Shown here piece after piece: positions 12,630 through 61,751 of a stretch of 64,000 nt of DNA. A program made the position numbers and the translations under genes. This DNA is from an uncultured Verrucomicrobiota bacterium (GTDB lineage Bacteria > Auribacterota > JABMQX01). Below the pieces are notes generated by a model. It was not told the DNA's origin and ran no database searches. It was given only the letters and a program-made list of their open reading frames with translations. How positions within the stretch are numbered: the first letter of the stretch is position 1; the number at the start of each line of letters is the position of its first letter. Location: contig CAZXGF010000007.1 of assembly GCA_964640185.1 (NCBI GenBank), positions 43,452 through 107,451 on the forward strand, read 5' to 3'.

Positions 12630-12662
12630 TGCGCCTCCCTTCGCCTGTTCACACGGGCCGCA

Positions 12663-13433: not shown

Positions 13434-13574
13434 CGTTTGGTTCCTCCTTCGAGGTGAATAGCGGCGCCATCGCCGCCTCCAGGGACAACACTGTTTACAG
13501 GACCGCTCAAATACGCCCAATGTTACGGCGGCCGTTGTCAGTCGGGTCAGTGGTGCGCGCCAGTTGTGACGACC

Positions 13575-15716
13575 CTACATGCCGCCGCGCCGAAGGCCGG
13601 TGTTGCCGCCTGCGTTCGACACCGGCCAGGTGGCGCGAAACTCGTCCTGATAGAGGCCAATTTTATCAAAGGGAATCTTTTTGAACGCGGGGATTTTCCG
13701 GTAAACGATGGAATCATCTTTCAGTTGGAAATTCATCTTCGCGGCGTCCACAAACCCCGGGTCCTCGTCGGTAATGAAATTATCTGCGACCTTGATATAT
13801 TTCCTGTCCGGATCGTGCCAACTGCTCCGGTAGGACACATTGTTCACGACGACGTTGCCGAGCGGCGCCTGCGGGTGCTCCTCCAGAATGCGCGCCAGTT
13901 TCGGATACCTCATGCTCCAGGGCGGTTGCTTAATCCTGAACCGCTTGAGCGGCTCGTACATGGGCCCGCCAGGACGGAAGTGGTCCCAGGTCAACCCTCG
14001 CGTGTCGAGATGCACAGGCTGTTCGCACTCGATAAAGATGTTGTTCTGCACAATGTTGTCTCGCCCGCCCCCGATAAACGCCGACTCTCTCGTCTTGTAA
14101 AAAACGTTGCCGAAAATCTCCGTCGAGCTGGCGCAGTCGTCAAGGTAAACCACCTTTGAGCCGAAGCCCGGCCTGAAAGGAATATGATGTATGAAGTTGT
14201 ATCGCACGACGTTCCCCCGAAACGTCCAGTCACGCCCAGTGTAGAGAACCCCCGCATCGCTCGACTCGAGGACTACATCGTGGATCTCGTTGAGCTCGAT
14301 GAGGTGATCGTTGCCGTCATACCCTATCGCCTGATGGGGGGCATCGTGAATCAAGTTATGTGCGAGCCGGTGGCCGACGCCGTAGATTCTCACCGCCGGC
14401 TGATAGACCTTCTTTCGCTGCGAGTAATGATGAATGTGACAGTTCACCACATAATTCCCCGCCGGAGTCAGTGTCGAGCGGTTTCCGCCGGTCATGCGAA
14501 CGGCCGTCGAGCCCACCTCGTGAATATCACACCCGAGGACGCCGTTGTTCGTCCCGCCGTCCAAAACGACAGCATGAGAGCCTATGCAGCGGACGACGCA
14601 TCCCGCGAGGCAGTTATGTGTCCCGCCTCCCACAACGGCCCCCACGCCGCGCGTCACTTCGAGAGTCAGTCCTCGAATTGCGACGTAGGAAGTGTTGGCC
14701 AGCGTCACTAACGGCTCCTTCAAGCTGGAGCAGTATAATGTGTGCTTCCGAAAATCCTTTGGAGGCCAGAAGTACAATACGCCTTTCTTGCGGTCGAGGA
14801 ACCATTCCCCCGCCCGGTCTATCTCCTCCAAAAGGTTCAGCGCATAGAACCACTGCCCGCTTTTAATCCCGCCACCCGGAGTCGAGACGAGCGTGATTTC
14901 CCTCTTTTCCGTATCAATGCGCTCAATCCCGACGTGCTGATCCATCCAGCCGTACCACCAGAAGCCGTGCAATACAACTTCCTCGGCATTGACCCAGCGT
15001 TTCGGGCGGTCGCCGCTGTACCTGAACGTCTTGCCCTGCTTGTTTCCATCCACCAGCCGCCGCGCCGAATCCTCACCGATTTCGATGACCTTGCCGATAT
15101 GAGCCCAGCCTTTATTGGGCCAGCGCGCAAGTTGCATCCGGCTGCCGTTCCAAAACAGCTCCAGCATCGGCCCGGAAATCGAAAGCTCACCGTAATCGGT
15201 GATGCCGCGAGCCTTCAAATCCACCTGCAACACTTTGCCGCGAGCGTCCCTATCCAAACGGCTCAGAACCGCTGTGTCTTTCACCGGCTGGAGCCACGAC
15301 GGCTTTATCTCCAGCCCGCCCACGAGACGCACGTTTTCCTTCCCGTAAGCCCGATAGAGCACCGGCGCCTCTTTCGTCCCCGAATCCTCTTTGGTCAACT
15401 GAAACGTCTGCGTGCGATAGTAAACGCCGTCCCGAATCCAAACCGTAACGGCGCCCTTCAGCGGCCCGGACCGCTTCAGGCGGCGGACGGCGTCTCGCGC
15501 ACCCTCCGGGCTCCGGAAAGGTTTTCCTTTCGTCCCGGGATTGGTGTCGCTTCCATCGCTCGCGACGTAGAGCTCAACAGTTTCTGCTGCGGCCGCCGGC
15601 AGATGCGGAGCGGCAGGGGACAGCAAAGCGGACTGAGCCATTGCAGCGTAACCGGCGGGAACGAGGCACGCCGAAAACAGTAAAACCGTAACTTGCTCAC
15701 GACGGAAGAAATTCAT
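13575..15716 (-). CDS. Right-handed parallel beta-helix (DUF1565-like) secreted protein, paralog B
   Basis: 713 aa with signal peptide. N-terminus ELYVASDGSDTNPGTKGKPFRSPEGARDA. The C-terminal third is near-identical to paralog A. Confidence 0.75.
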   Translation of the reverse strand: MNFFRREQVTVLLFSACLVPAGYAAMAQSALLSPAAPHLPAAAAETVELYVASDGSDTNPGTKGKPFRSPEGARDAVRRLKRSGPLKGAVTVWIRDGVYYRTQTFQLTKEDSGTKEAPVLYRAYGKENVRLVGGLEIKPSWLQPVKDTAVLSRLDRDARGKVLQVDLKARGITDYGELSISGPMLELFWNGSRMQLARWPNKGWAHIGKVIEIGEDSARRLVDGNKQGKTFRYSGDRPKRWVNAEEVVLHGFWWYGWMDQHVGIERIDTEKREITLVSTPGGGIKSGQWFYALNLLEEIDRAGEWFLDRKKGVLYFWPPKDFRKHTLYCSSLKEPLVTLANTSYVAIRGLTLEVTRGVGAVVGGGTHNCLAGCVVRCIGSHAVVLDGGTNNGVLGCDIHEVGSTAVRMTGGNRSTLTPAGNYVVNCHIHHYSQRKKVYQPAVRIYGVGHRLAHNLIHDAPHQAIGYDGNDHLIELNEIHDVVLESSDAGVLYTGRDWTFRGNVVRYNFIHHIPFRPGFGSKVVYLDDCASSTEIFGNVFYKTRESAFIGGGRDNIVQNNIFIECEQPVHLDTRGLTWDHFRPGGPMYEPLKRFRIKQPPWSMRYPKLARILEEHPQAPLGNVVVNNVSYRSSWHDPDRKYIKVADNFITDEDPGFVDAAKMNFQLKDDSIVYRKIPAFKKIPFDKIGLYQDEFRATWPVSNAGGNTGLRRGGM
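13618..14400. repeat. ~0.78 kb near-identical direct repeat, copy 2 (3-prime part of beta-helix gene B)
   Basis: See copy 1. Identity begins at ACACCGGCCAGGTGGCGCGAAACTCGTCCTG in both copies. Confidence 0.85.
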
Positions 15717-18906: not shown

Positions 18907-19521
18907 TTAGGCAGCGGCATAAACGACATGTTCTTCTCGAAAGTGACTTGTGACGATGTCCGGTCGGTGCCGGGTGCTGCGGAGGTAGGCCCGAACCTGC
19001 CCTATCATTTCTTTCGGGTTGTGGGGACGCTGACGGCCAACCGCATTGGTCTTGACATCTTGATTGACAAGCTCGTCCGGATTCAGTTCCGGACTGTAAG
19101 AGGGCAGGAGGAACATACGGATGCAGTCGGACTGGCGAACCAGCCGGCGCTCGAGCTCGCCGGAGCGATGGACGGGATGGTGATCCACGATGAGGAACAT
19201 CTTCCGTCTCGTATGCTTCAGTAAGCGGCGAAGGAAGCGCATCATCACCTTGGAGCTGAACCGGTCCTCGAAAACCATAAACGCCAGTTGGCCCCTGCTG
19301 GTGATGGAGGACATCATGTCACAACCAATGCGTTGACCGGCCCCAGGAATGACCGGCGTCCGACCGCGTTTCCCGTACGAGCGACCCGCTTCATCCAGCC
19401 GTTGACCGCAACGCGAGAAACTTAGAACACCCGCGCCACCACGCTGTGACTCATGTTCTGTTGCGGGACCGCCGCCGCCACCCGACGGCGGAGGCCTTCC
19501 TGCGCTTCCGGAGAAAGGCAC
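18907..19521 (-). pseudogene. IS630/Tc1-family transposase remnant (C-terminal DDE region only)
   Basis: Hallmark motif FLLPSYSPELNPDE plus LIVDHHPVH. The N-terminal HTH and first catalytic Asp are missing, and upstream sequence is replaced by the R1 repeat. Lies directly next to the MITE right end. Confidence 0.7.
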
Positions 19522-19998: not shown

Positions 19999-20075
19999 GG
20001 GCGATTAGCTCAGATGGTTAGAGCGTTAGCTCGACACGCTAAAGGTCACTGGTTCAAGTCCAGTATCGCCCACCA
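19999..20075 (+). tRNA. tRNA-Val (anticodon GAC), CCA encoded
   Basis: Cloverleaf by hand: acceptor GGGCGAT/ATCGCCC, D-arm GCTC/GAGC, anticodon stem TTAGC/GCTAA with loop TCGACAC, T-arm ACTGG-TTCAAGT-CCAGT. C at loop position 33 is unusual. Confidence 0.8.
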
Positions 20076-27357: not shown

Positions 27358-27369
27358 GCTGAGACATAT

Positions 27370-27560
27370 ACCCTACCGTGCCCGTAGCACAACGAAGAAT
27401 CTTTGAGCCAACAGTACCGAATCGGGAGCCATGATTGGGTCGCTTTTGCAAGTACGCTCAGGAAAGCATACAGCATCCTTGAGGGCACCCACTTTGACAA
27501 ACAAGCGTTCAAAGATCTCGTTGATACGGCATTAAGGTAGGGTTTTTTTATGTCCTCGGG
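27370..27560 (+). ncRNA. Candidate 6S RNA (ssrS) locus - hypothesis from synteny and end-pairing
   Basis: A 223-nt non-coding gap after zapA, with rarA and a 5-formyl-THF cyclo-ligase next. 5-prime CCCTACC(GTGCC) can pair with 3-prime (GGCAT-taa-)GGTAGGG, and a T7 run follows. Confidence 0.25.
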
Positions 27561-41378: not shown

Positions 41379-42482
41379 TCAAGACTCCTTTCTCCTTTTG
41401 ATTATCATCAATCCAATGCCTACCACTATCACCGAGGCGATTCCAATCGCCGCCCCCCACCTTGCGAGCGTCGCCGTTCCGAAAAGCGGCGGCACTGTCC
41501 TATCCCGCCCGTCCTCGAGTTTTCGCCGAGGAACCTCCTGACAAGTTTCCTCCGAGTCATCAAAACCCAGGAGCACCGATTGCAGCGGCTCGAGCGTGAC
41601 CGGGGGGAGACTCGCGATAGCCCTCTCCCAGTCCCAGTCCGTCAGGAGGTCCATCCCCGCGCCCTGAAATCTGAGGTCGCAGGAGCAATCGCCGTTCATG
41701 ATGCCCACGCACTCGACGATGTTCCTGCGGGTGATTCCCTCGCCGATGCAAGCCGTGAGGACTCTGCCGCGGCCGCAAATCCCGAAAACCATGCATTGTT
41801 TCTTGTCCGGCGCCTCTTCCACAACGTCCAATAGCGAGCGGACGAGCCATTTTTCCCTCGCCCCTCCCCGAGAGAGCCGCACGAAGCCCACGTCGAGGCC
41901 GTACTCCCGCTTGCCCGTCGCCAGCACCCAGCGCACGTCCTCCCCGGCCTTTTTGTTTTCCTCGTGATCCGGCCCGGCGAGTAGAAACAATAGACCGCCT
42001 TTCCCTGCACACAGTTCGCGAGCGATACGGGTCTTCATCGGCGAATGAACGATCGCTTTCGCCGTGGGCAAATCCAGCCGCCCCCGAAATAGCACCGTGC
42101 CCCGGGGGCTGAGGATGAGATGGAAAGGCAGCTTGTCCGAGCGATGTTCGCTCAGGACCTCTCGGTCCTCCACCGCGACAGCCTCGCCAGTCACCGCACT
42201 TACCTCCGCGGCTCGGAAAGTAAGGTTAACGTGGCTGCCGAAACTGCTCCCTGCATCTTCGAGAAAGTCGTTCACCTTGCGGTCGCCGTCGTCCTCCTCG
42301 CCGCGATAGAAGTAGTACGTCCGATAAAAGTCTCTTTCCCACCTTTCAAGCATGTAACGATACACCGGTACGGCGCAAGCTCTTACCGGAGCAAACGGGG
42401 CAGACCCAACCGCCATGAGACACAGCGCGGCGACCAGGGCGCGGGGATTGACCGAAACGCCTTTTGGCAACTTGACAGTCAC
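41379..42482 (-). CDS. Exported hypothetical protein with C-terminal membrane anchor (unknown family)
   Basis: N-terminal signal peptide. Cys-rich segment CIGEGITRRNIVECVGIMNGDCSCD. C-terminal hydrophobic helix plus KRRKES. Embedded between two ABC systems on the same strand. Confidence 0.5.
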   Translation of the reverse strand: MTVKLPKGVSVNPRALVAALCLMAVGSAPFAPVRACAVPVYRYMLERWERDFYRTYYFYRGEEDDGDRKVNDFLEDAGSSFGSHVNLTFRAAEVSAVTGEAVAVEDREVLSEHRSDKLPFHLILSPRGTVLFRGRLDLPTAKAIVHSPMKTRIARELCAGKGGLLFLLAGPDHEENKKAGEDVRWVLATGKREYGLDVGFVRLSRGGAREKWLVRSLLDVVEEAPDKKQCMVFGICGRGRVLTACIGEGITRRNIVECVGIMNGDCSCDLRFQGAGMDLLTDWDWERAIASLPPVTLEPLQSVLLGFDDSEETCQEVPRRKLEDGRDRTVPPLFGTATLARWGAAIGIASVIVVGIGLMIIKRRKES

Positions 42483-43383: not shown

Positions 43384-44530
43384 CTATTCTTCCATCAGAG
43401 TCACTGCCGGGTCCTGCGTGACTGCGACAATCGCCGGCAGGTAGCTTGCAAGGGCACATATCGCCGGGGCGCCGACCGCAGACCAGCCCAGAAGACGAAA
43501 GACCGGCTCGATTTTACCGGCTGTCACTCGAAATATCTCCGGCCCGAACTGAAGCGCAAGCCCCGTTCCCACAGCGAAACCTATCGCGGCGCCGATTAGC
43601 CCGAGAAGAACCGCCTTTCCGAGAAAAAGCGAGGCGATTCGCCCTGACCCAAAGCCCAACGCCCGCAGAATGCCGATTTCCTGCCGGCGCTCTCGGACGT
43701 TGCTGAGCGACAACAGACCGACCCACACCGCGGATACAAGAAAAACCGTTGGAATAATGAACGCCGCGTACTTCTCAACCATCTTGCGGGTCTCCGCTCG
43801 CGCCACGGCTATCGAGCCTCGCTCCGTAACGTTCGTTTCCGGCAGCACTTCGGCTATGGTCTCGCGGACGTTGCCAAGCTGCGCTCCCTGGCAAAGACAC
43901 CGCAGCGCCTCGATGGCATTGATTTTCCCCGGCTTGCCCAAAACCTCCTGGACATCGTGCAAGTCTCCGTAGATGCGGATGTCGTCCTTGCTGCCTGTCT
44001 CCTGTAGACACCGTTCGACCACAAAATCTTTGCCGAGGAGGGTAATGGTGTCCCCCTCGTTGAGCTTCAAGACCCGAGCCAGTTCGAAGCCGACATAGAC
44101 TTTCCCTCTCGGAATACTGTAGCCCATGTCGGGCTTCTTTTCTTTCCCTCTGACGGGCGTTTCCGGCAGAACGCCGGTCAGGAGAACCTTCTGGTTGCTC
44201 AATGTGATTTTCTTTTGAAGGGTCGCCACAAGATGCCGGATGGTGATGATGCCTGAGTTTGCGAGCTTGTGCACGTAATCCTCCGACATCTCCTCCGTGG
44301 CAAAATCCTCGCTCCAGAAATCGGTCATGTTGGTGTTCTTCGGCACTATCAGGACGTTGAAGCCGAGGTCACGCATCAGCTGCACGGTCTCCCGTTCGGA
44401 AGCGTTGCTCATGGTCAGCACCGCCACAAACAGCGCCACCGCCGCTACGACCGACACAAGCCCCAGCAGAAAATTCAACTTCCTGTGGGCCATTTCTTTG
44501 AAAAGCAATCTCAGCATAGACATTCCTCGC
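43384..44530 (-). CDS. ABC transporter permease, FtsX/MacB-LolE family
   Basis: Start at ATG 44530 (MSMLRLLFKEMAHRKLNF) with a G-rich SD. 4-TM FtsX-type C-terminus. The longer 620-aa ORF is a read-through of upstream repeats. Confidence 0.8.
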
Positions 44531-44595
44531 CCCCTTTGCAGACGATAAACGCTTTCATCATAAGTATAGCCAAAAACGTTGCGAATTCCCATAAT

Positions 44596-45035
44596 AATAT
44601 TGATGTGGCTCCATTTCAGTGGCGGAACTGTCCTTGGACCTAACCCGTGCCGGAATCTCGACCCCATCCCAACACTCACCTTTACGAAGAGGAGAAAACG
44701 CCGGGCCATTCGAACTGGACTCGAGGAATCTTTCGAGTCGTGACGCACATATCTCGCCCTTTCAGGGCTCATCATTCTTGAACCGGGGCCCTTTCTCAGG
44801 GCGTTGCCCTGAGCTTTATTAAGTCTGCCCTTACAGGGCGACCCGAAAGCAATCTTCAGCCCTGAAAGGGCGCAATATTTTAGCCCAGGGCAACGCCCTG
44901 GGGAAATATCACGTGGTAAAATACAAAAGCCCTGAAGGGGCGTAATAGGCTCATCCCCAATACACGGTTCGCACCAGACACACGACAGCGGACCCGCGTG
45001 CCACTGAAATGGAGCCACACCCAATAATATGGATG
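44596..45035. repeat. Cluster of nested palindromes bounded by inverted copies of TGGCTCCATTTCAGTGG
   Basis: Inverted motif copies at 44603-44628 and 45003-45030. Inside: GCCCTTTCAGGGC / AGCCCTGAAAGGGC and the perfect palindromes CAGGGCGTTGCCCTG and CAGGGCAACGCCCTG. Confidence 0.6.
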
Positions 45036-45039
45036 AGAG

Positions 45040-45247
45040 TGTAACGCCTCCGTCTGGGGCGGGTACGGAGCTGCGGGCGAGAACAAGGGAAAAGGAGGGT
45101 AACGCAAAGGCGCAGAGTCGCAGAGAGGAGCATGAGAAGGACTCTGTCGTCGCCTGCCGTAGCATGGGCATCTTGCCCATGATTCCTCCACGGGTCCCCC
45201 GCCAGACGCGGGGGATGCCGCGTGGGCGACGGCTGTTCTTTTTCACC
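45040..45247 (-). repeat. R1 structured repeat, copy D (minus orientation, upstream of the minus-strand ABC operon)
   Basis: Hairpin 1 is extended (CCCCCGC-GTCTG-GCGGGGG). Hairpin 2 is CATGGGCAAGATGCCCATG. CT-rich tract follows. Confidence 0.8.
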
Positions 45248-45793: not shown

Positions 45794-48346
45794 GTGAAAC
45801 GTGCTGCTGTAGTCATCGCGTGGTTTCTGGTTGCCTTGGCGGCGGCATCCGGAGCTGAGCAGAAACCGCAGAAGCAAATTCTCACCTGGCGAGCTCTCCC
45901 CGACATGCCCCAGGCGGTATCCGGACATTTCGCCGGCGTGAGCAATAATGTGCTCATTGTCGCCGGTGGCGCTCACTTCCCTGTGCCGTTATTCGAAGGG
46001 GGCAAGAAGGTCTGGGTTGACACGGTCTTTGCGCTCAGAGCCGGCGCGGATGAATGGCAGACCTCACTCAAGCTGCACAATCCCCTCGCGTACGGTGCGA
46101 CGGCCGTCACCGACGACGGAATTGTCTGCATCGGCGGCGGCGACGCGGAGAGAAACTACGCTGAGGTGTTCCGGCTACAGTGGGTCAATGGGCAAATCCG
46201 CCGGACCCCTTTACCTGACCTGCCGAAGCCTTGTGCGATGTGCAGCGCAGCGGTGCTCGAGGATACAATATACGTCGCCGGTGGACAGGACTCGCCCAAG
46301 GCAACCGCCGCTATGAGAAATTTCTGGGCGCTGGACCTCTCAAAAGCTGAGCTCAAATGGGCTGTGCTTGAGCCCTGGCCCGGGGCGCCTCGTATCCTGC
46401 CAGCGGCCGCCGCGCAGGATGGCGCCTTCTATTTGGTCAGCGGCGCCGACCTCCTCGTCGGAGAAGACCGGGAAGTTTTCCGCCGATACCTGAACGACGC
46501 TTATCGTTTCCAGCCCGGGAAAGGGTGGGAGAGAATCGCCGATGTGCCAAGACCGACGGTGGCGGCGCCGGCAATAGCTTACGGTCCCTCTCACATCCTG
46601 GTCTTTGGCGGGGACGACGGCGAGAACGCCAGCCGAGTCTGGGAATTGAAGGAGAAACATCCGGGCTTTAGCCGCGACATTCTCGCCTACCACACCATTA
46701 CCGACACCTGGGCGAGGATGGGAACGTTGCCGGCTGGTCTGGTGACCACAAACGCCGTGCACTGGCGGGATGCCATCGTTATTCCCGGCGGAGAGGACCG
46801 GCCGGGACACCGCTCGGCTGAGGTTCTTGAGGGTCGCCGGTCAGAATCGAAAGCGCGTTTCGGCTTTCTCAACACAGCCGTTCTGCTCGTCTATCTTTCG
46901 GGGATTTTAGTGGTGGGCGTGTACTTCTCTCGGCGGGAAAAGAGCACCGCCGATTTCTTTCTTGCGGGGCGGCGTGTGCCCTGGTGGGCCGCGGGAGTGA
47001 GCATCTTCGGCACGCAACTCAGCGCGATCACCTTCATGGCCATCCCTGCCAAAGCCTATGCGACGAATTGGGTCTATTTCCTGGTCAACATGTGCATCAT
47101 CGCCATCGCCCCGGTTGTCGTTTTCTTTTACCTGCCGTTCTTCCGTCGGCTGGAGATCACCACAGCTTACGAATACCTGGAGAAACGTTTTCATCTTCAC
47201 GTGCGTCTGTTCGGGAGCGTGGCTTTCATACTGTTCCAATTGGGGCGAATGGGCATCGTGCTATTCCTGCCGGCGCTCGCTCTGTCAACGGTAACTGGGA
47301 TTAATATCTATACCGGCATTCTACTCATGGCGGTTTTGTGCACGTTTTACACCGTTCTGGGCGGAATCGAGGCTGTGATCTGGACCGATGTGTTGCAGGC
47401 CATGGTATTGCTTGGAGGCGCGTTGGTCAGCCTACTTATCATTTCAACGAGTCTTGACGGCGGCCTCCGTGGAATCATGGCCATCGGTCAGGCCAACCAC
47501 AAGTTTCATGCGTTCAACTGGACCTGGGATGTCACGATGGCGGCTGTTTGGATTGTCGTTATCGGCAATCTTTTTGCGACCCTTGTCCCCTACACGACGG
47601 ATCAGGCAGTGATTCAGCGCTACCTCACCACGCCGAACGAAAGGGACGCGGCTAAGTCCATCTGGACCAATGCGGTTCTCACGATTCCCGCGACTATCAT
47701 CTTCTTCGGAATCGGCACGGCCCTTTTCGCCTTCTACAAGGCTCGCCCAGACCTTCTCAACCCTGCGCTGCAAACGGACGCCATTTTCCCCTGGTTCATT
47801 GTGCAACAACTGCCGGTGGGCGTCTCGGGTCTGGTCATCGCGGGTCTATTTGCCGCGGCGATGTCCACTCTCGACAGCAGTATGAACAGTGTGGCAACGG
47901 CGATGGTGACCGATTTCTACCGCCGATTCAAGCCCCGCGCCGCGGACAACACTTGTCTGAGAATCGCTCGCGGCCTGACGGTCGTCCTGGGCACAGTGGC
48001 CGCCGCAACAGCACTTCTCATGGCAGCATACAAGATCAAATCGCTCTGGGACCTTTACTTAAGGTTGGTTGGGTTGCTGGGCGGGAGCCTGGCGGGCGTG
48101 TTCGCACTTGGCATCTTTACCCGACGGGCGCACGGGCGCGGCGCTCTGGCGGGAGCGGGCGCCAGCGTGATTGCTCTGTTCCTCGTGCAGCGATATACCC
48201 GACTTCACTTGTTCCTTTACGCGCCGGTGGGCATCATCTCGTGCTTCGTGGTCGGCTACCTTGCCAGCCTGCTGCTCCCCGCAGCTCCAAAACTACTGAA
48301 AGGATTAACAGTATTCACGATGAACAGCCGGAGGGACACGCAATGA
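45794..48346 (+). CDS. Fusion protein: N-terminal NanM-like Kelch beta-propeller (sialic acid mutarotase family) + C-terminal sodium:solute symporter (SSS)
   Basis: GTG start, signal peptide. The ~350-aa N-terminal region has Kelch-type repeats like YjhT/NanM. From ~residue 370 there is a 13-14-TM SSS core (LAGRRVPWWAAGVSIFGTQLSAITFMAIPA...). Confidence 0.75.
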   Translation: MKRAAVVIAWFLVALAAASGAEQKPQKQILTWRALPDMPQAVSGHFAGVSNNVLIVAGGAHFPVPLFEGGKKVWVDTVFALRAGADEWQTSLKLHNPLAYGATAVTDDGIVCIGGGDAERNYAEVFRLQWVNGQIRRTPLPDLPKPCAMCSAAVLEDTIYVAGGQDSPKATAAMRNFWALDLSKAELKWAVLEPWPGAPRILPAAAAQDGAFYLVSGADLLVGEDREVFRRYLNDAYRFQPGKGWERIADVPRPTVAAPAIAYGPSHILVFGGDDGENASRVWELKEKHPGFSRDILAYHTITDTWARMGTLPAGLVTTNAVHWRDAIVIPGGEDRPGHRSAEVLEGRRSESKARFGFLNTAVLLVYLSGILVVGVYFSRREKSTADFFLAGRRVPWWAAGVSIFGTQLSAITFMAIPAKAYATNWVYFLVNMCIIAIAPVVVFFYLPFFRRLEITTAYEYLEKRFHLHVRLFGSVAFILFQLGRMGIVLFLPALALSTVTGINIYTGILLMAVLCTFYTVLGGIEAVIWTDVLQAMVLLGGALVSLLIISTSLDGGLRGIMAIGQANHKFHAFNWTWDVTMAAVWIVVIGNLFATLVPYTTDQAVIQRYLTTPNERDAAKSIWTNAVLTIPATIIFFGIGTALFAFYKARPDLLNPALQTDAIFPWFIVQQLPVGVSGLVIAGLFAAAMSTLDSSMNSVATAMVTDFYRRFKPRAADNTCLRIARGLTVVLGTVAAATALLMAAYKIKSLWDLYLRLVGLLGGSLAGVFALGIFTRRAHGRGALAGAGASVIALFLVQRYTRLHLFLYAPVGIISCFVVGYLASLLLPAAPKLLKGLTVFTMNSRRDTQ

Positions 48347-50628
48347 ATTCCATAATCGGAGACCTCGAGACCGAATGGAAACGAAAGGCAGCACGTCTTA
48401 TTGCCTCAGTGCTCCTGTGCAGCAGTGTGACTGCGGCGACTGCCACAGAACGACCCACATCAGCGCTACCGCGATATTACACTATTCCCATCATTGATCT
48501 TTCGCAGGAAACTCACCGCCAGGTCATCGTTGACAAGGAGCCCGGCCAGTACCTCGGCCATCCCAGCACGGTTCTTCTCAGGGACAACAAGACCATCCTC
48601 GCGGTTTATCCCAAAGGCCACGGGCGCGGCGCCCTTGTAATGAAAAAGAGCACTGACGGCGGCTTGACCTGGAGCGGGCGCCTGCCCGTGCCCGAAAACT
48701 GGGCGACATCGAAAGAGACGCCCACGCTCCACCGTGTGACCGACCCGCAGGGTGTCGAGCGGCTGATTATGTTCTCCGGGCTTTACCCGATACGCATGGC
48801 GGTCTCAGAGGACAATGGCGACACATGGACACCGTTCAAACCTATCGGCGATTTTGGCGGAATCGTCACTATGGGGAGCGTCGTGCGGCTCAAAGATGGG
48901 ACTTACATGGCCATGTTTCACGACGACGGACGCTTCCTCCGCAAAGAGCGCAGCCGCTCGTCATTCAAGGTCTATAAAACCCTTTCCACCGATGGCGGTC
49001 TGACGTGGAGCGAACCCGAGGTCGTCACCCAGCACCCGACCGCTCACCTGTGCGAGCCGGGGGTCGTCCGCTCGCCTGACGGCAACCAACAGGCCTGCCT
49101 CCTGCGGGAGAACAGCCGTCAATTCAACTCGATGGTCATCTTCAGCAACGACGAGGGAAAGAGCTGGACAAAACCGGTTGAACTGCCCGCCAGCTTGACG
49201 GGCGACCGCCATGTTGCCCGCTACGCGCCCGACGGCCGGCTGGTCATCGTCTTCCGCGACACGACTCACATCAGCCCGACAAAGGGCGATTTTGTCGCCT
49301 GGGTCGGCGCCTACAAGGACATCATCCGCGGCCGCGAGGGCCAGTACCGCGTCCGCCTGCTGGACAACAAGAGAGGGGCGGACACCGGCTATGCGGGCCT
49401 GGAATTGCTCCCCGACGGCACATTCGTCGCCACAACATATTGCCATCTTGAAGAAGGCGAATCGCCCCTGGTTGCCAGCGTCCGCTTCAAGCTGGACGAG
49501 CTCGACGCCAAAGCCCCCCGGTTGCTGCCCCAGCAGACCGCCCTATTCGTTAGCGGCGCCGACGGCTACCATACCTACCGCATCCCTTCGCTGATTGTTA
49601 CAAAAAAGGGAACGGTACTGGCGTTCTGCGAGGGGCGTAAAAGCAGCCGAAGCGACAGCGGCGACATTGACCTGCTTGTCAAAAGGTCCACTGACGGCGG
49701 GCGGATATGGAGCGAGCAGAAGATCGTCTGGGACGACGGCGCCAACACCTGCGGCAACCCCTGCCCCGTCGTGGACACGGAAACTGGCACTCTCTGGCTG
49801 CTGATGACACACAATCTCGGTGTTGACCACGAAGGCCAGATCCTCGCAGGCGCCAGCAAGGGCACACGCACGGTCTGGGTCACTAAAAGCGACGACGACG
49901 GCCTGACGTGGGCGGCGCCCGTCGAAATCACCGGGGACGTCAAGAAACCGAACTGGAGCTGGTACGCGACTGGTCCCGGGGTGGGTATTCAACTCAGCGC
50001 CGGTCCCCACAATGGCCGCCTTGCTATCCCATGTGACCATAAGACTCTCGGCGACAAGGTCGGTTACTACTCCCACGTTTTCTACTCCGACGACCTCGGT
50101 AAAACCTGGAGGCTCGGCAGCTCGACCGAGAATGGCGTCAACGAATGTCAGGTCATCGAGCGAAGCGACGGGTCGCTGCTGTTGAACATGCGCCGCTCGC
50201 ACACCAACAAGGCTCTTTGGCGAGCCATCGCCACCAGCACTGACGGTGGGACGAGCTGGTCGAAGCTATCCTACGACAAAACGCTGATAAGTCCCCGCTG
50301 CCAGGCGAGTCTTCTGCGTTACGACCCCCCCGAAAAGTCGGAAAAACCGCTGGTACTGTTTTCCAACCCAGCGGACACGAAACAGCGAATCAAGATGACA
50401 GTACGGCTCAGCTATGACGAAGGGCGCACGTGGCCGGTCGCAAAGCTTCTGCACGCGGGTCCTTCCGCCTACTCCTGCCTCACCGTTCTGGCGGATAGGA
50501 GCATCGGCTGCCTGTACGAACGGGGCGACAAAGGCGCTTACGAAACGATTACCTTCGCGCGATTCAGGCTACCATGGCTGACAGATGGAGCCGAGACGCC
50601 GGAACGAAAAAAAAGTCCGGCGTTATAG
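48343..50628 (+). CDS. Exo-alpha-sialidase (GH33) with two BNR-repeat domains, secreted
   Basis: Nine Asp-box motifs (STDGGLTWS, SEDNGDTWT, SNDEGKSWT, STDGGRIWS, SDDDGLTWA ...). The start ATG overlaps the upstream stop (ATGA). Confidence 0.9.
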   Translation: MNSIIGDLETEWKRKAARLIASVLLCSSVTAATATERPTSALPRYYTIPIIDLSQETHRQVIVDKEPGQYLGHPSTVLLRDNKTILAVYPKGHGRGALVMKKSTDGGLTWSGRLPVPENWATSKETPTLHRVTDPQGVERLIMFSGLYPIRMAVSEDNGDTWTPFKPIGDFGGIVTMGSVVRLKDGTYMAMFHDDGRFLRKERSRSSFKVYKTLSTDGGLTWSEPEVVTQHPTAHLCEPGVVRSPDGNQQACLLRENSRQFNSMVIFSNDEGKSWTKPVELPASLTGDRHVARYAPDGRLVIVFRDTTHISPTKGDFVAWVGAYKDIIRGREGQYRVRLLDNKRGADTGYAGLELLPDGTFVATTYCHLEEGESPLVASVRFKLDELDAKAPRLLPQQTALFVSGADGYHTYRIPSLIVTKKGTVLAFCEGRKSSRSDSGDIDLLVKRSTDGGRIWSEQKIVWDDGANTCGNPCPVVDTETGTLWLLMTHNLGVDHEGQILAGASKGTRTVWVTKSDDDGLTWAAPVEITGDVKKPNWSWYATGPGVGIQLSAGPHNGRLAIPCDHKTLGDKVGYYSHVFYSDDLGKTWRLGSSTENGVNECQVIERSDGSLLLNMRRSHTNKALWRAIATSTDGGTSWSKLSYDKTLISPRCQASLLRYDPPEKSEKPLVLFSNPADTKQRIKMTVRLSYDEGRTWPVAKLLHAGPSAYSCLTVLADRSIGCLYERGDKGAYETITFARFRLPWLTDGAETPERKKSPAL

Positions 50629-50764
50629 GATAGATGCGACAACAACATCGTGGCGGTGGCCCGCAAAGGGCCGGTGCGTTGAAGGACTTATGTGACCGAC
50701 GCCGCAGAGCGCTATGAGATGTTTTTCAAAGCGGGAACACAAAACTGATAGGAAGACGCATAAA

Positions 50765-51691
50765 ATGAGACGACAACATCTGACTGGCTTGATTGCGGCG
50801 CCGCACACCCCCATGCACCCCGACGGAAGTGTCAATCTTGACATGATCGAAAAGCAAGCGGAATTGCTTGCGGGCGGGGCTCTGAGCGGTGTCTTTATTT
50901 GCGGCACGACAGGGGAGAGCGTGTCGCTTACTATCTCCGAGCGGCTCGAGGTCGCGGAACGCTGGCAAGCTGTCGCCGGGCGTGATTTCCCTATCATCGT
51001 CCACGTCGGGCATCTCTGTCTCGGTGATTGCAAAGTCCTCGCAGCGCACGCCCAGAAGATCGGCGCCCACGCCATAGCCGCCATGGCGCCGTGCTTTTTC
51101 AAGCCTGCCGATGTAGAAGACCTCGTCCTGTTCTGTGCCGAAATTGCCGCCGCGGCGCCGGAGTTACCCTTCTATTATTATCACATCCCTGCCTTGAGCG
51201 GCGTCAGCATTCCCATGCTCGATTTTCTAAAGGAAGCCTCAGGGCGAATCCCGACGCTTGCCGGCGGGAAGTTCACTCATGAGGACTTAATGGATTTTGG
51301 CCGCTGTCTCACCTTCGAGGGAGGGAGATTTGACATAGTATTCGGCCAAGACGAGATTCTGCTATCGGCGTTGGCTCTGGGGGCTCGCGGCGCCGTGGGC
51401 AGCACATACAACTTTGCGGCGCCCCTCTATCAAAGGATTATAGAAGCCCACAAAAGTGGCGACATCGCTGCCGCCCAGAAAGAGCAGGCCAGGGCTATGG
51501 AGTTAGTCCACGTTTTGAAAAGCTATGACGTTCTTCCAGCGGGCAAGTCCGTCATGAAAATGATCGGCCTCGATTGCGGCCCCGTTCGCGTTCCCCTGCG
51601 TACGCTTACGGACGAACAATGCGATGAGCTGCATGCTGAGTTGCAGCGCATCGGCTTTTTCACTTATTCCCTGCGGTGCGGGCCCTCGTGA
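50765..51691 (+). CDS. N-acetylneuraminate lyase / DapA-family aldolase
   Basis: Class I aldolase motifs GTTGE and a Schiff-base Lys region. Sits next to the sialidase. Start at internal ATG 50765. Confidence 0.8.
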   Translation: MRRQHLTGLIAAPHTPMHPDGSVNLDMIEKQAELLAGGALSGVFICGTTGESVSLTISERLEVAERWQAVAGRDFPIIVHVGHLCLGDCKVLAAHAQKIGAHAIAAMAPCFFKPADVEDLVLFCAEIAAAAPELPFYYYHIPALSGVSIPMLDFLKEASGRIPTLAGGKFTHEDLMDFGRCLTFEGGRFDIVFGQDEILLSALALGARGAVGSTYNFAAPLYQRIIEAHKSGDIAAAQKEQARAMELVHVLKSYDVLPAGKSVMKMIGLDCGPVRVPLRTLTDEQCDELHAELQRIGFFTYSLRCGPS

Positions 51692-52197
51692 CCCTCGAGA
51701 CTCGCCGTTAGGCGCAATCTCGGTTTGTCCGAACCCTTGCTTTCTGCCTCACCACCGCCGCAACGTAAAACCGGCGGCCGACTTACATCGAAAAGATGTC
51801 CGCCGGCGAAATGCGGACTCGGCGCCCTGATTTCCTTTTCCGCGAGCGTATTTGATATGAAGCTTTATCGCCCCTTTGGTCTGTCGAAACCTCGCCCAAT
51901 CGAAAACACTTAAACACAATCTTCTGGTACTGGAATCCCATGTGAATATCTTGTTCCTGATACGAATTGGATTACTACGTTTCAGTCCCTGGAACCTGTT
52001 CGGCGTACCGAGAAACGATTGCATGTACATTTGACACAGTCCCTTTTCATTGGCGTCAGCAGAAATGGAACTACGAACCTCCGAAACTCCCAGATGGTAG
52101 CCCACGTTCGTCGCTTGTTATCGTAAGTCCCTGATTTGCAAGGGGCCGATTTTTCAGTTTGTCATTACATCGCCCTTTCAGGGCTGTACCCTTCGCG

Positions 52198-52403
52198 GCA
52201 AAAAAAGCCGCTCCCCACGTGGCATCCCGCCGGAGGCGGGACCCGTGGGAATCATGGCCAAGATGGCCATGCCACGGCAGGCGAAGACGGGTTCCCTCTC
52301 ATCCTCCTCTGTGCGACTCTGCGGCTTTTGCGTTACCCTTCTCTTCTCTTTCTCCCTCCCCCGCCGTGGCAGGGCATCCGCCCAAGACTGAGGCCATACA
52401 CGC
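52198..52403 (+). repeat. R1 structured repeat, copy B
   Basis: Hairpin 1 is CCCGCC-GGA-GGCGGG. Hairpin 2 is CATGGCCAAGATGGCCATG, a double compensatory change versus copies A and D. It is preceded by a GCCCTTTCAGGGC motif. Confidence 0.8.
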
Positions 52404-52418
52404 CCTTCGTAATTGTCT

Positions 52419-52447
52419 TTGACAAGCGCCGCACGGCGCGGTACACT
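52419..52447 (+). promoter_or_regulatory. Near-consensus sigma70-type promoter (TTGACA-17-TACACT) upstream of gatB
   Basis: TTGACA at 52419-52424, 17-nt spacer, TACACT at 52442-52447. About 95 nt before the gatB GTG. Confidence 0.5.
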
Positions 52448-52546
52448 GCATTTTTGCGGCTTGATGTCCGGGCGGGACAAGTTCCGCTGGACGGCGAGCG
52501 CGCATTGCCGCAAGTATCTTCTTCCATAGTAGCAGGAGGAAAAGTC

Positions 52547-53974
52547 GTGGAATACGAAAGCGTCATCGGACTGGAGGTCCACGCGGAACTGAAGACCGAC
52601 ACGAAGATTTTCTGCGGTTGCTCGACCGAGTTCGGCGCCGAGCCCAACACGCAGACGTGCCCGGTGTGTTTAGGTCTGCCGGGCGTTCTGCCGGTCTTGA
52701 ACGAAAAGGCGCTTCGATATACAGTGAAGGTTGGTCTGGCTCTCGGATCCGAGATTTCCTCGTTCAGTAAGTTTGACCGGAAAAACTATTTCTATCCGGA
52801 CCTGCCGAAGGACTTTCAAATCTCGCAGTACGACAAGCCGCTGTGCCGAGGGGGCGCCGTGGAGTTCTCCTGCAACGGCGAGAAGCGGAAAGTCGCGCTG
52901 ACCCGTGTGCATCTGGAGGAGGATGCCGGAAAGCTGATACATTTCCCTGACGGGGAAAGCGGCGTGGATTTCAACCGGGTCGGGATTCCTCTCCTGGAAA
53001 TCGTGAGCGAGCCGGAGATACGCTCGCCGGACGAGGCCTATTTCTATCTTCTGGAGTTGAAGCTGTTGCTGAAATACCTCGATGTCAGCGATTGCAACAT
53101 GGAGGAGGGTAGCCTGAGGTGCGACGCGAACGTGTCCGTGCGTCCAAAGGGGCAAAAGAAGCTGAGCACGCAAGCGGAAATCAAGAATATGAACAGTTTC
53201 ACCGGAGTCCGCCGGGCCCTGGCCTACGAGATCGAGCGCCAAATCGGAGTGCTGGAGGGCGGGGGGAGAATCGTTCGGGAGACGCGGCGGTGGGACCCGG
53301 ATTCGCAAAGGACAGCTTCCATGCGAAGCAAGGAATGGTCACATGATTACCGCTATTTCCCTGAGCCGGACCTCGTGCCTTTTGTCCTCGAAAAAGCCTG
53401 GATTGACGAAGTGCGCGCCACCATACAGGAGCTGCCGGAAGCTCGCAAGGGACGGTTCATGGAGCAATACGGGCTTTCGGAGTACGACGCCGGAGTCCTC
53501 ACCGCCCAGAAAGCTTTCGCCGATTATTACGAGGAATGCGCGCACCTCCATGACAATTACAAGGCGATCTGCAACTGGGTCATGGGTGGTGTCCTCCAAG
53601 AATTGAATGCGAGAAAGATTTCTATCGGAGACCTCCCGATCTCCCCGAAGATGCTGGCGAACATGGTCCGCATGATAGACGATGGTAGAATTACCAGCAA
53701 TATCGCCAAGGAGGTTTTCGCGGAAATGTCGGAAACCGGCAAGCCTCCGGACAGAATCGTCGAAGAAAAAGGGCTGTCACCGATAACGGACGCGGGGGAA
53801 ATCGAGCGGGTTGTCGAGGAGGTCATCGAAAACAACCCCAAGCCTGTCCGGGATTTCCGCTCCGGTAAAGAGAGAGTTATCGGCTTTCTCGTGGGGCAGG
53901 TGATGAAAGCTGTCGGAGGAAAAGCTGACGCCCGGTTGGTCAACAAGATATTGAGAGAAAAGCTGAAACAGTAA
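52547..53974 (+). CDS. gatB: Asp-tRNA(Asn)/Glu-tRNA(Gln) amidotransferase subunit B
   Basis: GTG start with an AGGAGGA SD. YESVIGLEVHAELKT...FDRKNYFYPDLPK. C-terminal GatB/YqeY domain. Confidence 0.95.
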   Translation: MEYESVIGLEVHAELKTDTKIFCGCSTEFGAEPNTQTCPVCLGLPGVLPVLNEKALRYTVKVGLALGSEISSFSKFDRKNYFYPDLPKDFQISQYDKPLCRGGAVEFSCNGEKRKVALTRVHLEEDAGKLIHFPDGESGVDFNRVGIPLLEIVSEPEIRSPDEAYFYLLELKLLLKYLDVSDCNMEEGSLRCDANVSVRPKGQKKLSTQAEIKNMNSFTGVRRALAYEIERQIGVLEGGGRIVRETRRWDPDSQRTASMRSKEWSHDYRYFPEPDLVPFVLEKAWIDEVRATIQELPEARKGRFMEQYGLSEYDAGVLTAQKAFADYYEECAHLHDNYKAICNWVMGGVLQELNARKISIGDLPISPKMLANMVRMIDDGRITSNIAKEVFAEMSETGKPPDRIVEEKGLSPITDAGEIERVVEEVIENNPKPVRDFRSGKERVIGFLVGQVMKAVGGKADARLVNKILREKLKQ

Positions 53975-56938: not shown

Positions 56939-56966
56939 TTGCGGTTTTTTTGGGACGGGCTATAAT
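56939..56966 (+). promoter_or_regulatory. Candidate promoter (TTGCGG-16-TATAAT) upstream of the DUF1559 gene
   Basis: Perfect -10 TATAAT at 56961-56966. The -35 is weaker. ~120 nt before ATG 57088. Confidence 0.4.
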
Positions 56967-57087
56967 GATTTTTGTACTTCAATATTCTCGGTGTCTGCCT
57001 GAAAAGGCGGCGCGACGAACAAGCACGATGGTGGGGGAATGGGTGGTGTTTTGTCTCCGCAAGCATCAGCATGAGGAGGGAGTATCC

Positions 57088-57840
57088 ATGAAAACCCGAC
57101 ATGTCAAGGGATTCACACTCATAGAACTTCTCGTTGTCATGGCGATTCTTTCAATATTGATGGCGCTTCTGCTGCCGGCTATCCAAACCGCCAAGGAAAA
57201 GGCGAGATGGAGTCGTTGTATCTCGAACATGCGTCAGCTCGGTCAGGCGATGATGATGTACGCCGGCGACAACGACGGGCACCTGCCGGCATCGGGCTCA
57301 GAACACAACCAGGGAAGATTCGATTACGTTTGCGGTGGAACGGGGAATTCGTTCCCGCAGACGGACCCTGCCTCCATGAAAAGGATCAAGATCGAAGAAG
57401 GGACACTATGGCCTTACATGACGACCCTCCCACGGTGCGGACCCTACGGAAGCGCCACGAAAGGAATGACGGAGAAATGGTACGCCTCACCGGACAAAAA
57501 CCCGTACCTCTGTCCTTCTTCGGGACCGGTGGGAAGAAAAGCCGGATTGAGCTATTCGATGAACGCTGCTCTGGATGACAGAACCAGCGGCGGCAGCGGT
57601 ATCGGAATCCAAATATCGCGAATCAGAACCCCAAGCAGGACTATCCTGTTAGTTGACGAGAGCGAGCTGAAGCTCAACGACGGGCGCTTTGTGCCCCCCG
57701 GCGAAGCCGCCCACCTGATGATCAAGCATAACGATGGCGGCAATCTCCTCTTCTGCGACGCGAGCGTGAAGTGGGTCGCACAGGAAACGTTCATGAAAAT
57801 GATACAATCGGACTCGGGCTGCTGGGACCCCCTCCGGTGA
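57088..57840 (+). CDS. DUF1559 / prepilin-type N-terminal cleavage-methylation domain protein (Planctomycetota-typical)
   Basis: [31 protein letters not shown], then the H-X9-DG-type C-terminus. A GAGGAGG SD lies 7 nt upstream. Confidence 0.9.
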
Positions 57841-59180: not shown

Positions 59181-59252
59181 GGCGGCATAGCCAAGTGGTT
59201 AAGGCAGAGGATTGCAAATCCTTTATCCTCGGTTCGAATCCGGGTGCCGCCT
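59181..59252 (+). tRNA. tRNA-Cys (anticodon GCA)
   Basis: Acceptor GGCGGCA/TGCCGCC, anticodon stem GAGGA/TCCTT with loop TTGCAAA, T-arm CTCGG-TTCGAAT-CCGGG. CCA not encoded. Confidence 0.9.
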
Positions 59253-59399
59253 CTCTCCCTTTCCCACTGGCACCACGCCGGTTGCGAAGCGACCCTGTGA
59301 AGCTCTGTCGAGGTCGCCAACTGTCAGTGGCCTTATGTTTGACGAGTTCTCTCGGATTTTTCCCCGCCCTTCGCGCTCCCACTCTACCATAAGGCTCTG

Positions 59400-60026: not shown

Positions 60027-61751
60027 TCACCGGTTTTTGAGGTCGTCTCCCAGCGTGTCTACTCGTCGCGTAGTTCCCAAAAGCATATTGGCCATTAGAG
60101 TCATCGCCCCCTCTATAGAAAGTTGCTGACGTTCCACCGCCATCAGAAGTTTGTTAACCGTGGACGCCTGCTTTGGGTGAAGCAATTTGGCTGCCCAAGC
60201 GCGCAACATCAGGTTCGCGGGCTCGACTGTCGCAAGTTCAGGGACACCCGCCGTTCCGGGGAACATCGGCCTCGCCGGGGTTATCCCCGCCATCTGCAAT
60301 CGGGCTTGTGCCTTCACGCCCTCTCGCCGTTCTCGTATAGATTCCCGATAGGCTGTTCGCTCCGCCTGCCGTCGTGCCCTGAAATCACCAGGGGCCTCGC
60401 CAGGCATCATTCGCAGGCTTGGAAGCACCGCCTCACGGATAGGCCGAGTGAGCTTCTCTGCAATGGACTCTGCCTTTTGAAATGCCTTGCCAACAGCCTG
60501 GGCTGCACCGAACAACGAATTCGCGGCATTTACTCCCCACTGAAAAGCCGTTTTGAACTTGTCCGCGACGGAGTCCTGCTTCTCGCCGGCCTTGCCCAAG
60601 TCCTCTATGGGCTTCCGAGACGAGTCTATTGCCAGTTGCCAAAGCCGCGCGCCCTCGCCCGTCTCCTTGAACGCCGAGAGCATTTCAGGCGTCTTCCATT
60701 CCTCCTCAGTAACAGGAGGTCTGCCTACCGCACCCATGTGGGGTACATATCTCGTCTGCGGTTTGCGCTTTGCCTGCGCTTTCCCCCAAGTTTCAAACTC
60801 TTCCCAAAACTTCTGATAAGCCTCGGTACCGACCTTGACCTCCTTCACTGCCAGGCCAGCCCACCCCGACAGCGCCCGAAACACCGGACTTGCGCCTATC
60901 TCCTCGACCTTCTCGGCAACCATGCTCAAGGCATTGACCACTGACTGAGCCCATTCTTGCGCCTTGCCGGACTCCATCCACTTGCCAAGCTTCTCGGCCC
61001 ACTCCTGCATTTTCGGAATGAGCACCTTAGCCAGCACGCCCCACACACCCATCATGCCGTACTTCAGCTTTGTCATGACATCATCATAGGCTTTCGACAT
61101 CGCGGCGAGCTTGCCCATGCCCGGCGACAGCCGTTCCACTTCGTCACCCATCAGTTGGAAATACTCGCGGCCCAGTTTCAGAACAGGAATCAGGTCTTTT
61201 TGTCGAGTGCCCAGAAGACTCAAAACAAGAGCCATCTTTTGCTGCTCAGGAATGGCCTTGTTCGCCATGTAATCTACCAATCGCATGAAGACCTCGGCGA
61301 GGTCTGTAAGCCCTCGTTTCATTTCCTCATCGGTATAACCCAGCTTCTTGAATTCGCGCGTGTAGGTCGCTAACCCGTACTTGGCTTGCTCCATGTTTTT
61401 TGCAAGCAGCGGGAAGGACTTAGCAAGCAGCTCGAAGCTTCCGTGCTCCTGCTCGACCGCGTACCGGAGCCGGTGAAGGTCCCTGACCGTTATGCCCGTG
61501 ACCTTCGACAGCTTGTGCAGCTCGAGCGCATAGGCCATCGTGGACTTGACACCCTTCACCGCGATAGCCGTCCCCACAGCCGCCATCGCCGCCCCCGCCA
61601 TCGCTCCGAATTTGGCGAAGGCTTTGCCATAACGCATGACATTCTGGGACATGGTGCGCATGCGCTTGTCCGCCTTGTCTATCCCTCTCATAAAATTTGT
61701 GATCTTTGAGTTCAGGCCGATCCACGCCTCACCTATGTTAGCTTTCGCCAT
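60027..61751 (-). CDS. Phage tail tape-measure-like protein (alpha-helical, Ala/Gly-rich hydrophobic segments)
   Basis: 574 aa. A strong SD (GGGAGGTGA) precedes the ATG. AMAGAAMAAVGTAIAV segments and helical repeats are typical of tape-measure core regions. Assignment by composition and pattern only. Confidence 0.4.
   Translation of the reverse strand: MAKANIGEAWIGLNSKITNFMRGIDKADKRMRTMSQNVMRYGKAFAKFGAMAGAAMAAVGTAIAVKGVKSTMAYALELHKLSKVTGITVRDLHRLRYAVEQEHGSFELLAKSFPLLAKNMEQAKYGLATYTREFKKLGYTDEEMKRGLTDLAEVFMRLVDYMANKAIPEQQKMALVLSLLGTRQKDLIPVLKLGREYFQLMGDEVERLSPGMGKLAAMSKAYDDVMTKLKYGMMGVWGVLAKVLIPKMQEWAEKLGKWMESGKAQEWAQSVVNALSMVAEKVEEIGASPVFRALSGWAGLAVKEVKVGTEAYQKFWEEFETWGKAQAKRKPQTRYVPHMGAVGRPPVTEEEWKTPEMLSAFKETGEGARLWQLAIDSSRKPIEDLGKAGEKQDSVADKFKTAFQWGVNAANSLFGAAQAVGKAFQKAESIAEKLTRPIREAVLPSLRMMPGEAPGDFRARRQAERTAYRESIRERREGVKAQARLQMAGITPARPMFPGTAGVPELATVEPANLMLRAWAAKLLHPKQASTVNKLLMAVERQQLSIEGAMTLMANMLLGTTRRVDTLGDDLKNR

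Follow-up and report, generated by a model that had tools for sequence, protein, structure and literature searches.

Can an exported mutarotase and a sodium:solute symporter (SSS) form one genuine protein, and if so, what would such a protein do at the head of a sialic acid locus? The question is raised by a single open reading frame (ORF) in a stretch of 64,000 nucleotides (contig CAZXGF010000007.1, positions 43,452 to 107,451 of the forward strand; the whole stretch is hereafter called the window) from an uncultured Verrucomicrobiota bacterium that GTDB places in the Auribacterota (JABMQX01). The original prediction, made from the letters of the DNA, had read this ORF as a signal peptide, a Kelch propeller of the NanM type and a complete SSS transporter, followed with start-stop overlap by a two-domain sialidase and then by a NanA-like lyase, and each of these elements was borne out by our analysis. 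We conclude that the protein is very probably a SiaF-type sialic acid transporter (ST5, “CPM+TMD”, in which CPM stands for cyclically permutated mutarotase; PMC8461474) that works broadly as has been proposed for this clade. The likelihoods that we attach below to the SiaF reading, a shifted substrate, a non-catalytic propeller, and an artefact are not mutually exclusive.

The siaF coding sequence (45794..48346, + strand) is complete and occupies a single frame in the mechanical ORF list, with a GTG start and a length of 850 aa, exactly as predicted. Its N-terminus looks like a Sec signal peptide (aa 1–20, MKRAAVVIAWFLVALAAASG; 45794..45853, + strand; cleavage site inferred). Inspection of the sequence finds a K/R-containing n-region, a hydrophobic core of 15 residues, and an ASG/A site whose last A is the first of the residues AEQ, while the alignment places equivalent hydrophobic N-termini in the homologues ahead of a conserved W32-x-x-LPDLP motif. 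The AlphaFold2 (AF2) model of the protein, built from a 59-sequence alignment (pLDDT 85.9, pTM 0.84, the latter pointing only indirectly to a defined arrangement of the domains), has a helix at residues 2–19 and then a low-confidence stretch at 18–26. Public gene calls disagree on the start, with one record beginning at M38 (45905; 813 aa, P0001) and a Joint Genome Institute (JGI) record giving 850 aa (P0121); we prefer the GTG at 45794 because homologues share equivalent N-termini and because these residues have the form of a signal peptide. As for annotation practice, automatic labels give only “sodium/solute symporter”, and the signal peptide is sometimes trimmed off.

Whether one gene or two stand at this position can be judged from the relatives. 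An exhaustive HMMER scan with the propeller only against 1.84 billion cluster representatives matched 617 proteins when the threshold was E ≤ 1e-30 and 1793 when it was E ≤ 1e-10, and the best 150 of these comprise 95 standalone proteins (~350 aa), 38 in which an SSS domain follows directly (a count that takes in truncated fragments at contig ends), and 17 with other architectures. That standalone cyclically permuted mutarotases are so common, and that annotations differ because some gene callers begin siaF at M38, would both suit an assembly or sequencing artefact in which a frameshift or a lost stop codon has merged separate nanM and SSS genes. Against such a merger stand four independent assemblies (two JGI metagenomes and two Logan assemblies), in which the gene, with the same 850-codon frame, and its downstream genes are identical. 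The best 120 database relatives (57–80% identity, 813–923 aa, from many phyla; the close homologues in what follows) all carry the same fusion, with both the NANM and the SSF domain. At the junction (~46830–46870), where the original prediction had advised looking for a frameshift, the spacing from R340 to F356 is 15 residues in 119 of these 120 proteins, and what stands there is a conserved linker of fixed length and no frameshift scar. The identical gene in four assemblies and the fixed junction rule out a frameshift or merger, and since the architecture is also a published one, we regard an artefact as practically impossible.

The first half of the mature protein is a six-bladed beta-propeller of the NanM type (aa 30–349; 45881..46840, + strand). 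The Pfam family NANM (PF24996, N-acetylneuraminate epimerase) matches aa 141–352 with 112.7 bits against a cut-off of 45, a second NANM stretch lies closer to the N-terminus, and the NANM score exceeds those of the generic Kelch models. Among the NCBIfam models, TIGR03548 (“cyclically-permuted mutarotase family”) reaches 116 bits, under its full-length cut-off of 243, and it lies together with PRK14131 (“N-acetylneuraminate epimerase”) and TIGR03547 (“YjhT family mutarotase”) at E-values of ~1e-30 to 1e-33. When aligned with NanM of Escherichia coli K-12 (b4310), aa 140–346 match NanM 22–240 and aa 30–115 match NanM 248–343, and a doubled NanM sequence gives one contiguous alignment (query 30–346 with positions 248–589, E = 3.9e-22). 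These alignments show a cyclic permutation of the propeller with respect to E. coli NanM, which accounts for the match to TIGR03548. In the AF2 model, ~25 beta-strands run from residue 30 to 349, consistent with six blades and a closure strand, and the N-terminal half matches six-bladed Kelch domains at a TM-score of ~0.8 in Foldseek. The structure of E. coli NanM (2UVK) is absent from the top 50 Foldseek matches of the SiaF model, the probable reason being that a sequential alignment cannot follow the circular permutation. A helical insert is ~22 residues shorter than in NanM (query 250–283 versus NanM 122–177), with only one 10-residue helix (279–288) predicted; that this insert corresponds to the NanM dimerisation hairpin is an assumption of ours. 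A generic Kelch domain is ruled out by the NANM match above cut-off, the cyclic permutation with respect to NanM, and the kept catalytic pair described next.

This pair lies in the motif GGEDRPGHR (aa 332–340; 46787..46813, + strand), which aligns with NGEAKPGLR of E. coli NanM so that E334 and R340 are the equivalents of Glu209 and Arg215 (mature numbering). The latter two, which we take to be the catalytic pair, are reportedly the residues mutated in the 2008 study of E. coli NanM by Severi et al. The position of E334 is Glu in all 120 close homologues and that of R340 is Arg in 113 of 120 (94%), and both residues are kept in 20 of the 22 representatives of a more diverse set of fusions, the two others having A/K (P0469) and E/P (P0364) instead. 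The propeller could in principle be a non-catalytic domain, either a tethered substrate-capture or lectin-like module or a docking platform for the sialidase. The missing pair in two of the 22 diverse fusions would agree with such a role, as would the fact that the mutarotase activity of the cyclically permuted NanM or of SiaF is predicted only. The near-invariance of residues aligned with the E. coli pair and a NANM score well over its cut-off and over the generic Kelch models argue otherwise, and we consider a non-catalytic propeller very unlikely.

Other architectures contain the permuted NanM propeller as well (P0363, P0411, P0428, and P0444, ~715–811 aa; P0364, 1275 aa; P0464, 1096 aa; P0381, 819 aa). 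In some of these layouts an unidentified domain of ~400 aa precedes it, a further one carries duplicated propellers before an SSS domain, another is extended at its N-terminus by an extra ~270 aa, and some join an N-terminal propeller to a non-SSS C-terminal half, possibly as a fusion with a transporter of the major facilitator superfamily (MFS).

A linker of eight residues (aa 350–357; 46841..46864, + strand), delimited by the modelled secondary structure, leads from the last propeller strand to the first membrane helix of a complete SSS transporter of the SLC5/LeuT fold (aa 358–835; 46865..48298, + strand). Pfam SSF (PF00474) matches aa 388–787 with 160 bits, and NCBIfam TIGR00813 (“sss”) reaches 258 bits (cut-off 184). 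The closest solved relative is SiaT of Proteus mirabilis (5NV9), to which the domain aligns almost without gaps over SiaT residues 6–483 (phmmer, E = 1.4e-121); in Foldseek, it superimposes on 5NVA/5NV9 with TM-scores of 0.93–0.94, an rmsd of 2.1–2.6 Å, and 41–42% identity. The AF2 model has 13 membrane helices, the first starting at residue 358, and the break in the modelled transmembrane helix TM1 at L409/S410 is the exact equivalent of the unwinding at L59/S60 of SiaT. The loop after the first helix (SRREKSTADFFLAGRR; SRREKST...GRR) is strongly basic, which fits a periplasmic N-terminus, and with an odd number of helices the C-terminus would then lie inside. The predicted topology is thus N-out/C-in, and the earlier argument that an exported propeller and the transporter's N-terminal end would meet on the same side of the membrane holds.

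The residues that in SiaT hold the carboxylate and the sodium ions form a conserved core. SiaT Ser60, Thr63, and Arg135 bind the carboxylate of the substrate, and mutation of each abolishes transport (PMC5931594); their counterparts here are S410 (120 of 120 close homologues), T413 (Thr or Ser in 119 of 120), and R485 (120 of 120). The Na2 site, to which Ser342 and Ser343 of SiaT contribute hydroxyls (PMC5931594), is represented by S691 (conserved) and T692 (a change from Ser to Thr), and the Na3 site of Asp182, Ser345, and Ser346 (PMC5931594) by D532 (conserved), D694 (Asp in 98 of 120), and S695 (conserved). The carboxylate triad is near-invariant across the 22 diverse fusions as well, with the same pattern of a conserved core and a variable periphery.

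Downstream of siaF, the gene order siaF–sialidase–nanA makes siaF the head of a minimal cluster. The ATG of the sialidase gene (48343..50628, + strand; 761 aa) overlaps the TGA of siaF (48344–48346) in the sequence ATGA, and the encoded, secreted protein carries a separate signal peptide and a pair of propellers of the sialidase fold. The C-terminal domain (aa ~398–750) is a canonical glycoside hydrolase family 33 (GH33) sialidase with a YRIP motif and 202 bits to the Micromonospora viridifaciens sialidase 1EUR, and the N-terminal domain (aa ~35–395; 48445–49527, + strand) has a divergent sialidase fold. The third gene (50714..51691, + strand) encodes 325 aa from an ATG at 50714, or 308 aa from the start at 50765 that gene callers use. 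It matches Pfam DHDPS, and its best NCBIfam match is PRK04147 NanA (147.9 against an equivalog cut-off of 281). It scores 260, 256, and 221 bits against the solved N-acetylneuraminate lyases (NALs) 5AFD, 6H4E, and 6ARH, compared with at most ~89 bits against dihydrodipicolinate synthases (DHDPS), and its GTTGE, YHIPALSG, and GGKF motifs align with those of NALs (GxTGE, the catalytic Tyr, and the Schiff-base Lys). The unrelated genes gatB and accD follow ~850 bp past the lyase, and a MacB/LolD-like ABC exporter lies upstream of siaF on the opposite strand.

The N-terminal sialidase domain belongs to a very abundant family of standalone proteins (~382 aa) whose only annotation is “sialidase family protein”, it is unusually conserved (70–80% identity over its best 120 matches), and it has GHPS where GH33 enzymes have RIP. 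Its best structural match is 5HX0, a protein of unknown function (TM-score 0.69), ahead of true sialidases, and in one relative (P0275) a GDSL esterase is joined to it. The two halves that are fused in the window sialidase stand as separate genes near siaF homologues in other phyla (loci L009, 5089–6177 and 2206–3207; L011, 12694–14808; L014; and L017), and in L011 they are adjacent in an order reversed with respect to the window.

A link between the fusion and sialic acid catabolism is recurrent, since NanA and sialidase genes are found beside its homologues elsewhere. Same-architecture homologues at 58–62% identity, compared with 42% to SiaT, occur in metagenome-assembled genomes (MAGs) of Bacteroidota and Planctomycetota, and a scan of genome contigs found its best identity (62%) in Sedimentisphaerales and Calditrichota MAGs. 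Named relatives cover the Planctomycetota (Phycisphaerae, Sedimentisphaerales), Armatimonadota, KSB1, Calditrichota, Hydrogenedentota, Acidobacteriota (Blastocatellales), Cytophagia, and a Nitrospiraceae MAG. The gene directly upstream of the fusion encodes NanA in MAGs of the Sedimentisphaerales, Phycisphaerales, Hydrogenedentota, Nitrospiraceae, and Blastocatellales, and one Phycisphaerales locus has a GlcNAc 2-epimerase gene as well. Sialidase genes are found near the fusion in six loci, and an association with NanA and/or sialidase in at least nine related loci.

The original prediction did not recognise the fusion as a standard described architecture, and on this point it has to be corrected, since the NanM-SSS architecture was described in 2021 and is abundant in public data. 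Severi et al. 2021 (Microb Genom 7:000614, PMC8461474) list a SiaF clade of ST5 transporters as “CPM+TMD (13 TMH)” in their Table 1. The published SiaF has a leader peptide, an N-terminal periplasmic NanM propeller that lacks the dimerisation hairpin of the E. coli protein, and an N-out/C-in topology, and it is encoded in nan clusters, the proposed rationale being to feed beta-Neu5Ac to the transporter (PMC8461474). The window protein has the same leader peptide, permuted NanM propeller, 13-helix N-out/C-in SSS domain, and sialocatabolic setting. Its helical insert is much reduced, which would agree with the published SiaF if the insert is the dimerisation hairpin. It differs in that its cluster is minimal (siaF, sialidase, and nanA only), and its relatives span more phyla than the Bacteroidetes, Planctomycetes/Verrucomicrobia, and few Gammaproteobacteria in which the clade was reported (PMC8461474); this broader range is an incremental extension only.

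Three other systems help to place the fusion. With SiaT of P. mirabilis (Wahlgren et al. 2018, PMC5931594), it shares the LeuT fold, the 13 helices, Ser60/Thr63/Arg135, the Na2 site, and Asp182/Ser346, whereas SiaT is without a periplasmic domain and its pocket residues differ from those of the window protein. With E. coli NanM/YjhT (2UVK), it shares the six-bladed Kelch-type propeller, the GE..PG.R motif, and periplasmic export, but E. coli NanM is a soluble homodimer, whereas the propeller in the window is permuted (the segment equivalent to NanM 248–343 comes first) and covalently anchored to a transporter. The NanM-NanZ fusions of Akkermansia muciniphila and Akkermansia glycaniphila (ST4) likewise join an exported N-terminal NanM-like domain to a sialic acid transporter, yet the transporter there belongs to the MFS, which is unrelated to the SSS family, and has an additional helix at its N-terminus; the fusion is an independent event (PMC8461474).

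How, then, would the locus work? The architecture is predicted to be that of a Sec-exported, permuted NanM propeller tied by ~8 residues to the N-terminus, which faces the periplasm, of a 13-helix Na+/sialic acid symporter. Retaining sialidases of GH33 release the alpha-anomer of sialic acid, and NanM accelerates mutarotation. The co-transcribed and translationally coupled GH33 sialidase would thus release alpha-Neu5Ac from sialoglycans outside the cytoplasm, and the tethered propeller would speed its alpha-to-beta mutarotation beside the mouth of the transporter. SiaT binds the beta-anomer with two Na+ ions (PMC5931594, PMC10017367), and the SSS domain of the fusion would import this anomer together with Na+, after which the NanA lyase would cleave the imported sialic acid to ManNAc and pyruvate. 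It had been suggested that one polypeptide couples sialidase release, anomer conversion, and uptake; only the last two would share a chain, and the sialidase is a protein of its own, coupled to the fusion at translation.

Several observations weigh against this reading of the locus. The SiaF clade was listed as not characterised, with its substrate given as “Neu5Ac(?)” (PMC8461474), and we found no later experimental work on SiaF in the literature. The assignment of the window protein to SiaF, made by comparison with the published description, is putative. Glu209 and Arg215 of E. coli NanM are presumably catalytic, with the exact match in numbering as the only corroboration. No nanK, nanE, N-acylglucosamine 2-epimerase (AGE, GlcNAc 2-epimerase), nagA, nagB, or regulator gene was found in the 64-kb window, so that the genes that process ManNAc must lie elsewhere. 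Finally, the periphery of the binding pocket departs from SiaT, where Gln82 and Thr58 contact the glycerol tail and the C2-OH group and Phe78, Gly81, and Phe243 form the N-acetyl pocket (PMC5931594); in the alignment, none of these residues is matched in the window protein. Thr58 is replaced by Q408 (Gln in all 120 close homologues), Gln82 by N432, Phe78 by Y428, Gly81 by V431, and Phe243 by N592, and in the hydration layer Asn247 is replaced by T596 and Gln250 by P599. The fusion is hence not a strict SiaT orthologue, which has no bearing on its membership in SiaF.

The physiological substrate might be another carboxylated nine-carbon sugar, such as KDN, Neu5Gc, O-acetylated sialic acids, or bacterial legionaminic/pseudaminic-type acids, taken up in a non-host lifestyle in sediment or soil. 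A core for carboxylate and Na+ that is kept while the rest of the SiaT pocket differs and varies across the family would be in line with such a shift, as would the predominance of environmental MAGs among the relatives (Planctomycetota, Hydrogenedentota, KSB1, Calditrichota, Armatimonadota) and the extra, highly conserved propeller of unknown specificity in the sialidase. Pointing back to Neu5Ac are the adjoining C-terminal sialidase domain, which is a canonical GH33 domain, and the lyase, which stands nearest to proven Neu5Ac lyases. As KDN or Neu5Gc will also serve many GH33 and NAL enzymes as substrates, the locus context discriminates poorly among the candidates. On balance, we think a shifted substrate unlikely. 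A transporter for 2,7-anhydro-Neu5Ac was considered as well and is unlikely, as a mutarotase would have no role there and siaF has no NanOx-like neighbour; the two GFO/IDH/MocA genes of the window are 42 kb distant.

The remainder of the window consists of housekeeping genes and of enzymes for the degradation of glycans (GH95, a GH42/GH5-like protein, and beta-helix proteins). The latter form a glycan-foraging neighbourhood (6482–10348, + strand, and 10560–15716, − strand) that encodes a hydrolase of the GH42/GH5-like kind, a GH95 enzyme of the alpha-L-fucosidase type, and two large proteins with a right-handed beta-helix; this set is in keeping with an organism that removes fucose and sialic acid as terminal sugars of complex glycans. 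A 943-aa ORF (3532–6363, + strand) adjoins the GH42/GH5-like and GH95 genes; neither this ORF nor another large one (41379–42482, − strand, 367 aa) has a Pfam match at E ≤ 0.1, and a third (60027–61751, − strand, 574 aa) has none at this threshold except for one 13-bit match at E ~0.1.

The intergenic region of ~1.27 kb upstream of siaF holds an element of ~416 nt (44604–45019) that perfect 20-nt inverted repeats (TGTGGCTCCATTTCAGTGGC) delimit and that contains nested palindromic hairpins; inside the element, the Rfam family Acido-Lenti-1 (RF01687) matches 44858–44902 (− strand) with 49.8 bits against a cut-off of 37; the element could be an insertion resembling a miniature inverted-repeat transposable element (MITE) or a structured small RNA (sRNA) locus. 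Several mechanical ORFs extend well upstream of their likely starts (given second): the FtsX permease (43384–45246; 44523), the sialidase (47953–50628; 48343), and GatB (52136–53974; 52547). Non-coding RNA genes in the window comprise a 6S RNA (27367–27547, + strand, 52.4 bits), tRNA-Val(GAC) (19999–20075, + strand), and tRNA-Cys(GCA) (59181–59253, + strand). A DDE_3 transposase ORF (18907–19521, − strand), which may be the remnant of an insertion sequence, lies ~480 bp from the tRNA-Val gene and is flanked by thrS and a gene for a Na+:dicarboxylate symporter. The ThrRS sequence shares at most 80% identity with a MAG protein and at most 66% with proteins of named phyla. At 56950–57840 (+ strand), the window encodes a DUF1559 protein with a prepilin-type N-methylation motif; the DUF1559 and N_methyl family is massively expanded in Planctomycetes and other bacteria of the PVC group. 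Together with the Acido-Lenti-1 match, this protein is a weak hint at a lineage of the PVC type.

What the locus adds to the publication is little: it bears out the SiaF fusion as real and ancient, its junction being of fixed length. Compared with the 2021 survey, the fusion also proves much more widely distributed among environmental lineages outside the gut. A bolder and rather improbable extension is that this SiaF branch, with its invariant Gln in place of Thr58, its altered glycerol and N-acyl pocket, the strict conservation of its linker length, and its abundance in non-host bacteria of sediments and soils, has become specialised for another nonulosonic acid than Neu5Ac (KDN or a bacterial Leg/Pse-type acid), and that the propeller may dock over the outward vestibule and channel its anomerised product instead of releasing it. 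If that were true, the propeller would be the first structurally shown device for channelling from an enzyme to a transporter in the biology of sialic acid. As the family is biochemically uncharacterised, any well-behaved SiaF could serve to test whether tethering a mutarotase brings a kinetic advantage, and the siaF–sialidase–nanA locus offers a compact candidate for doing so.

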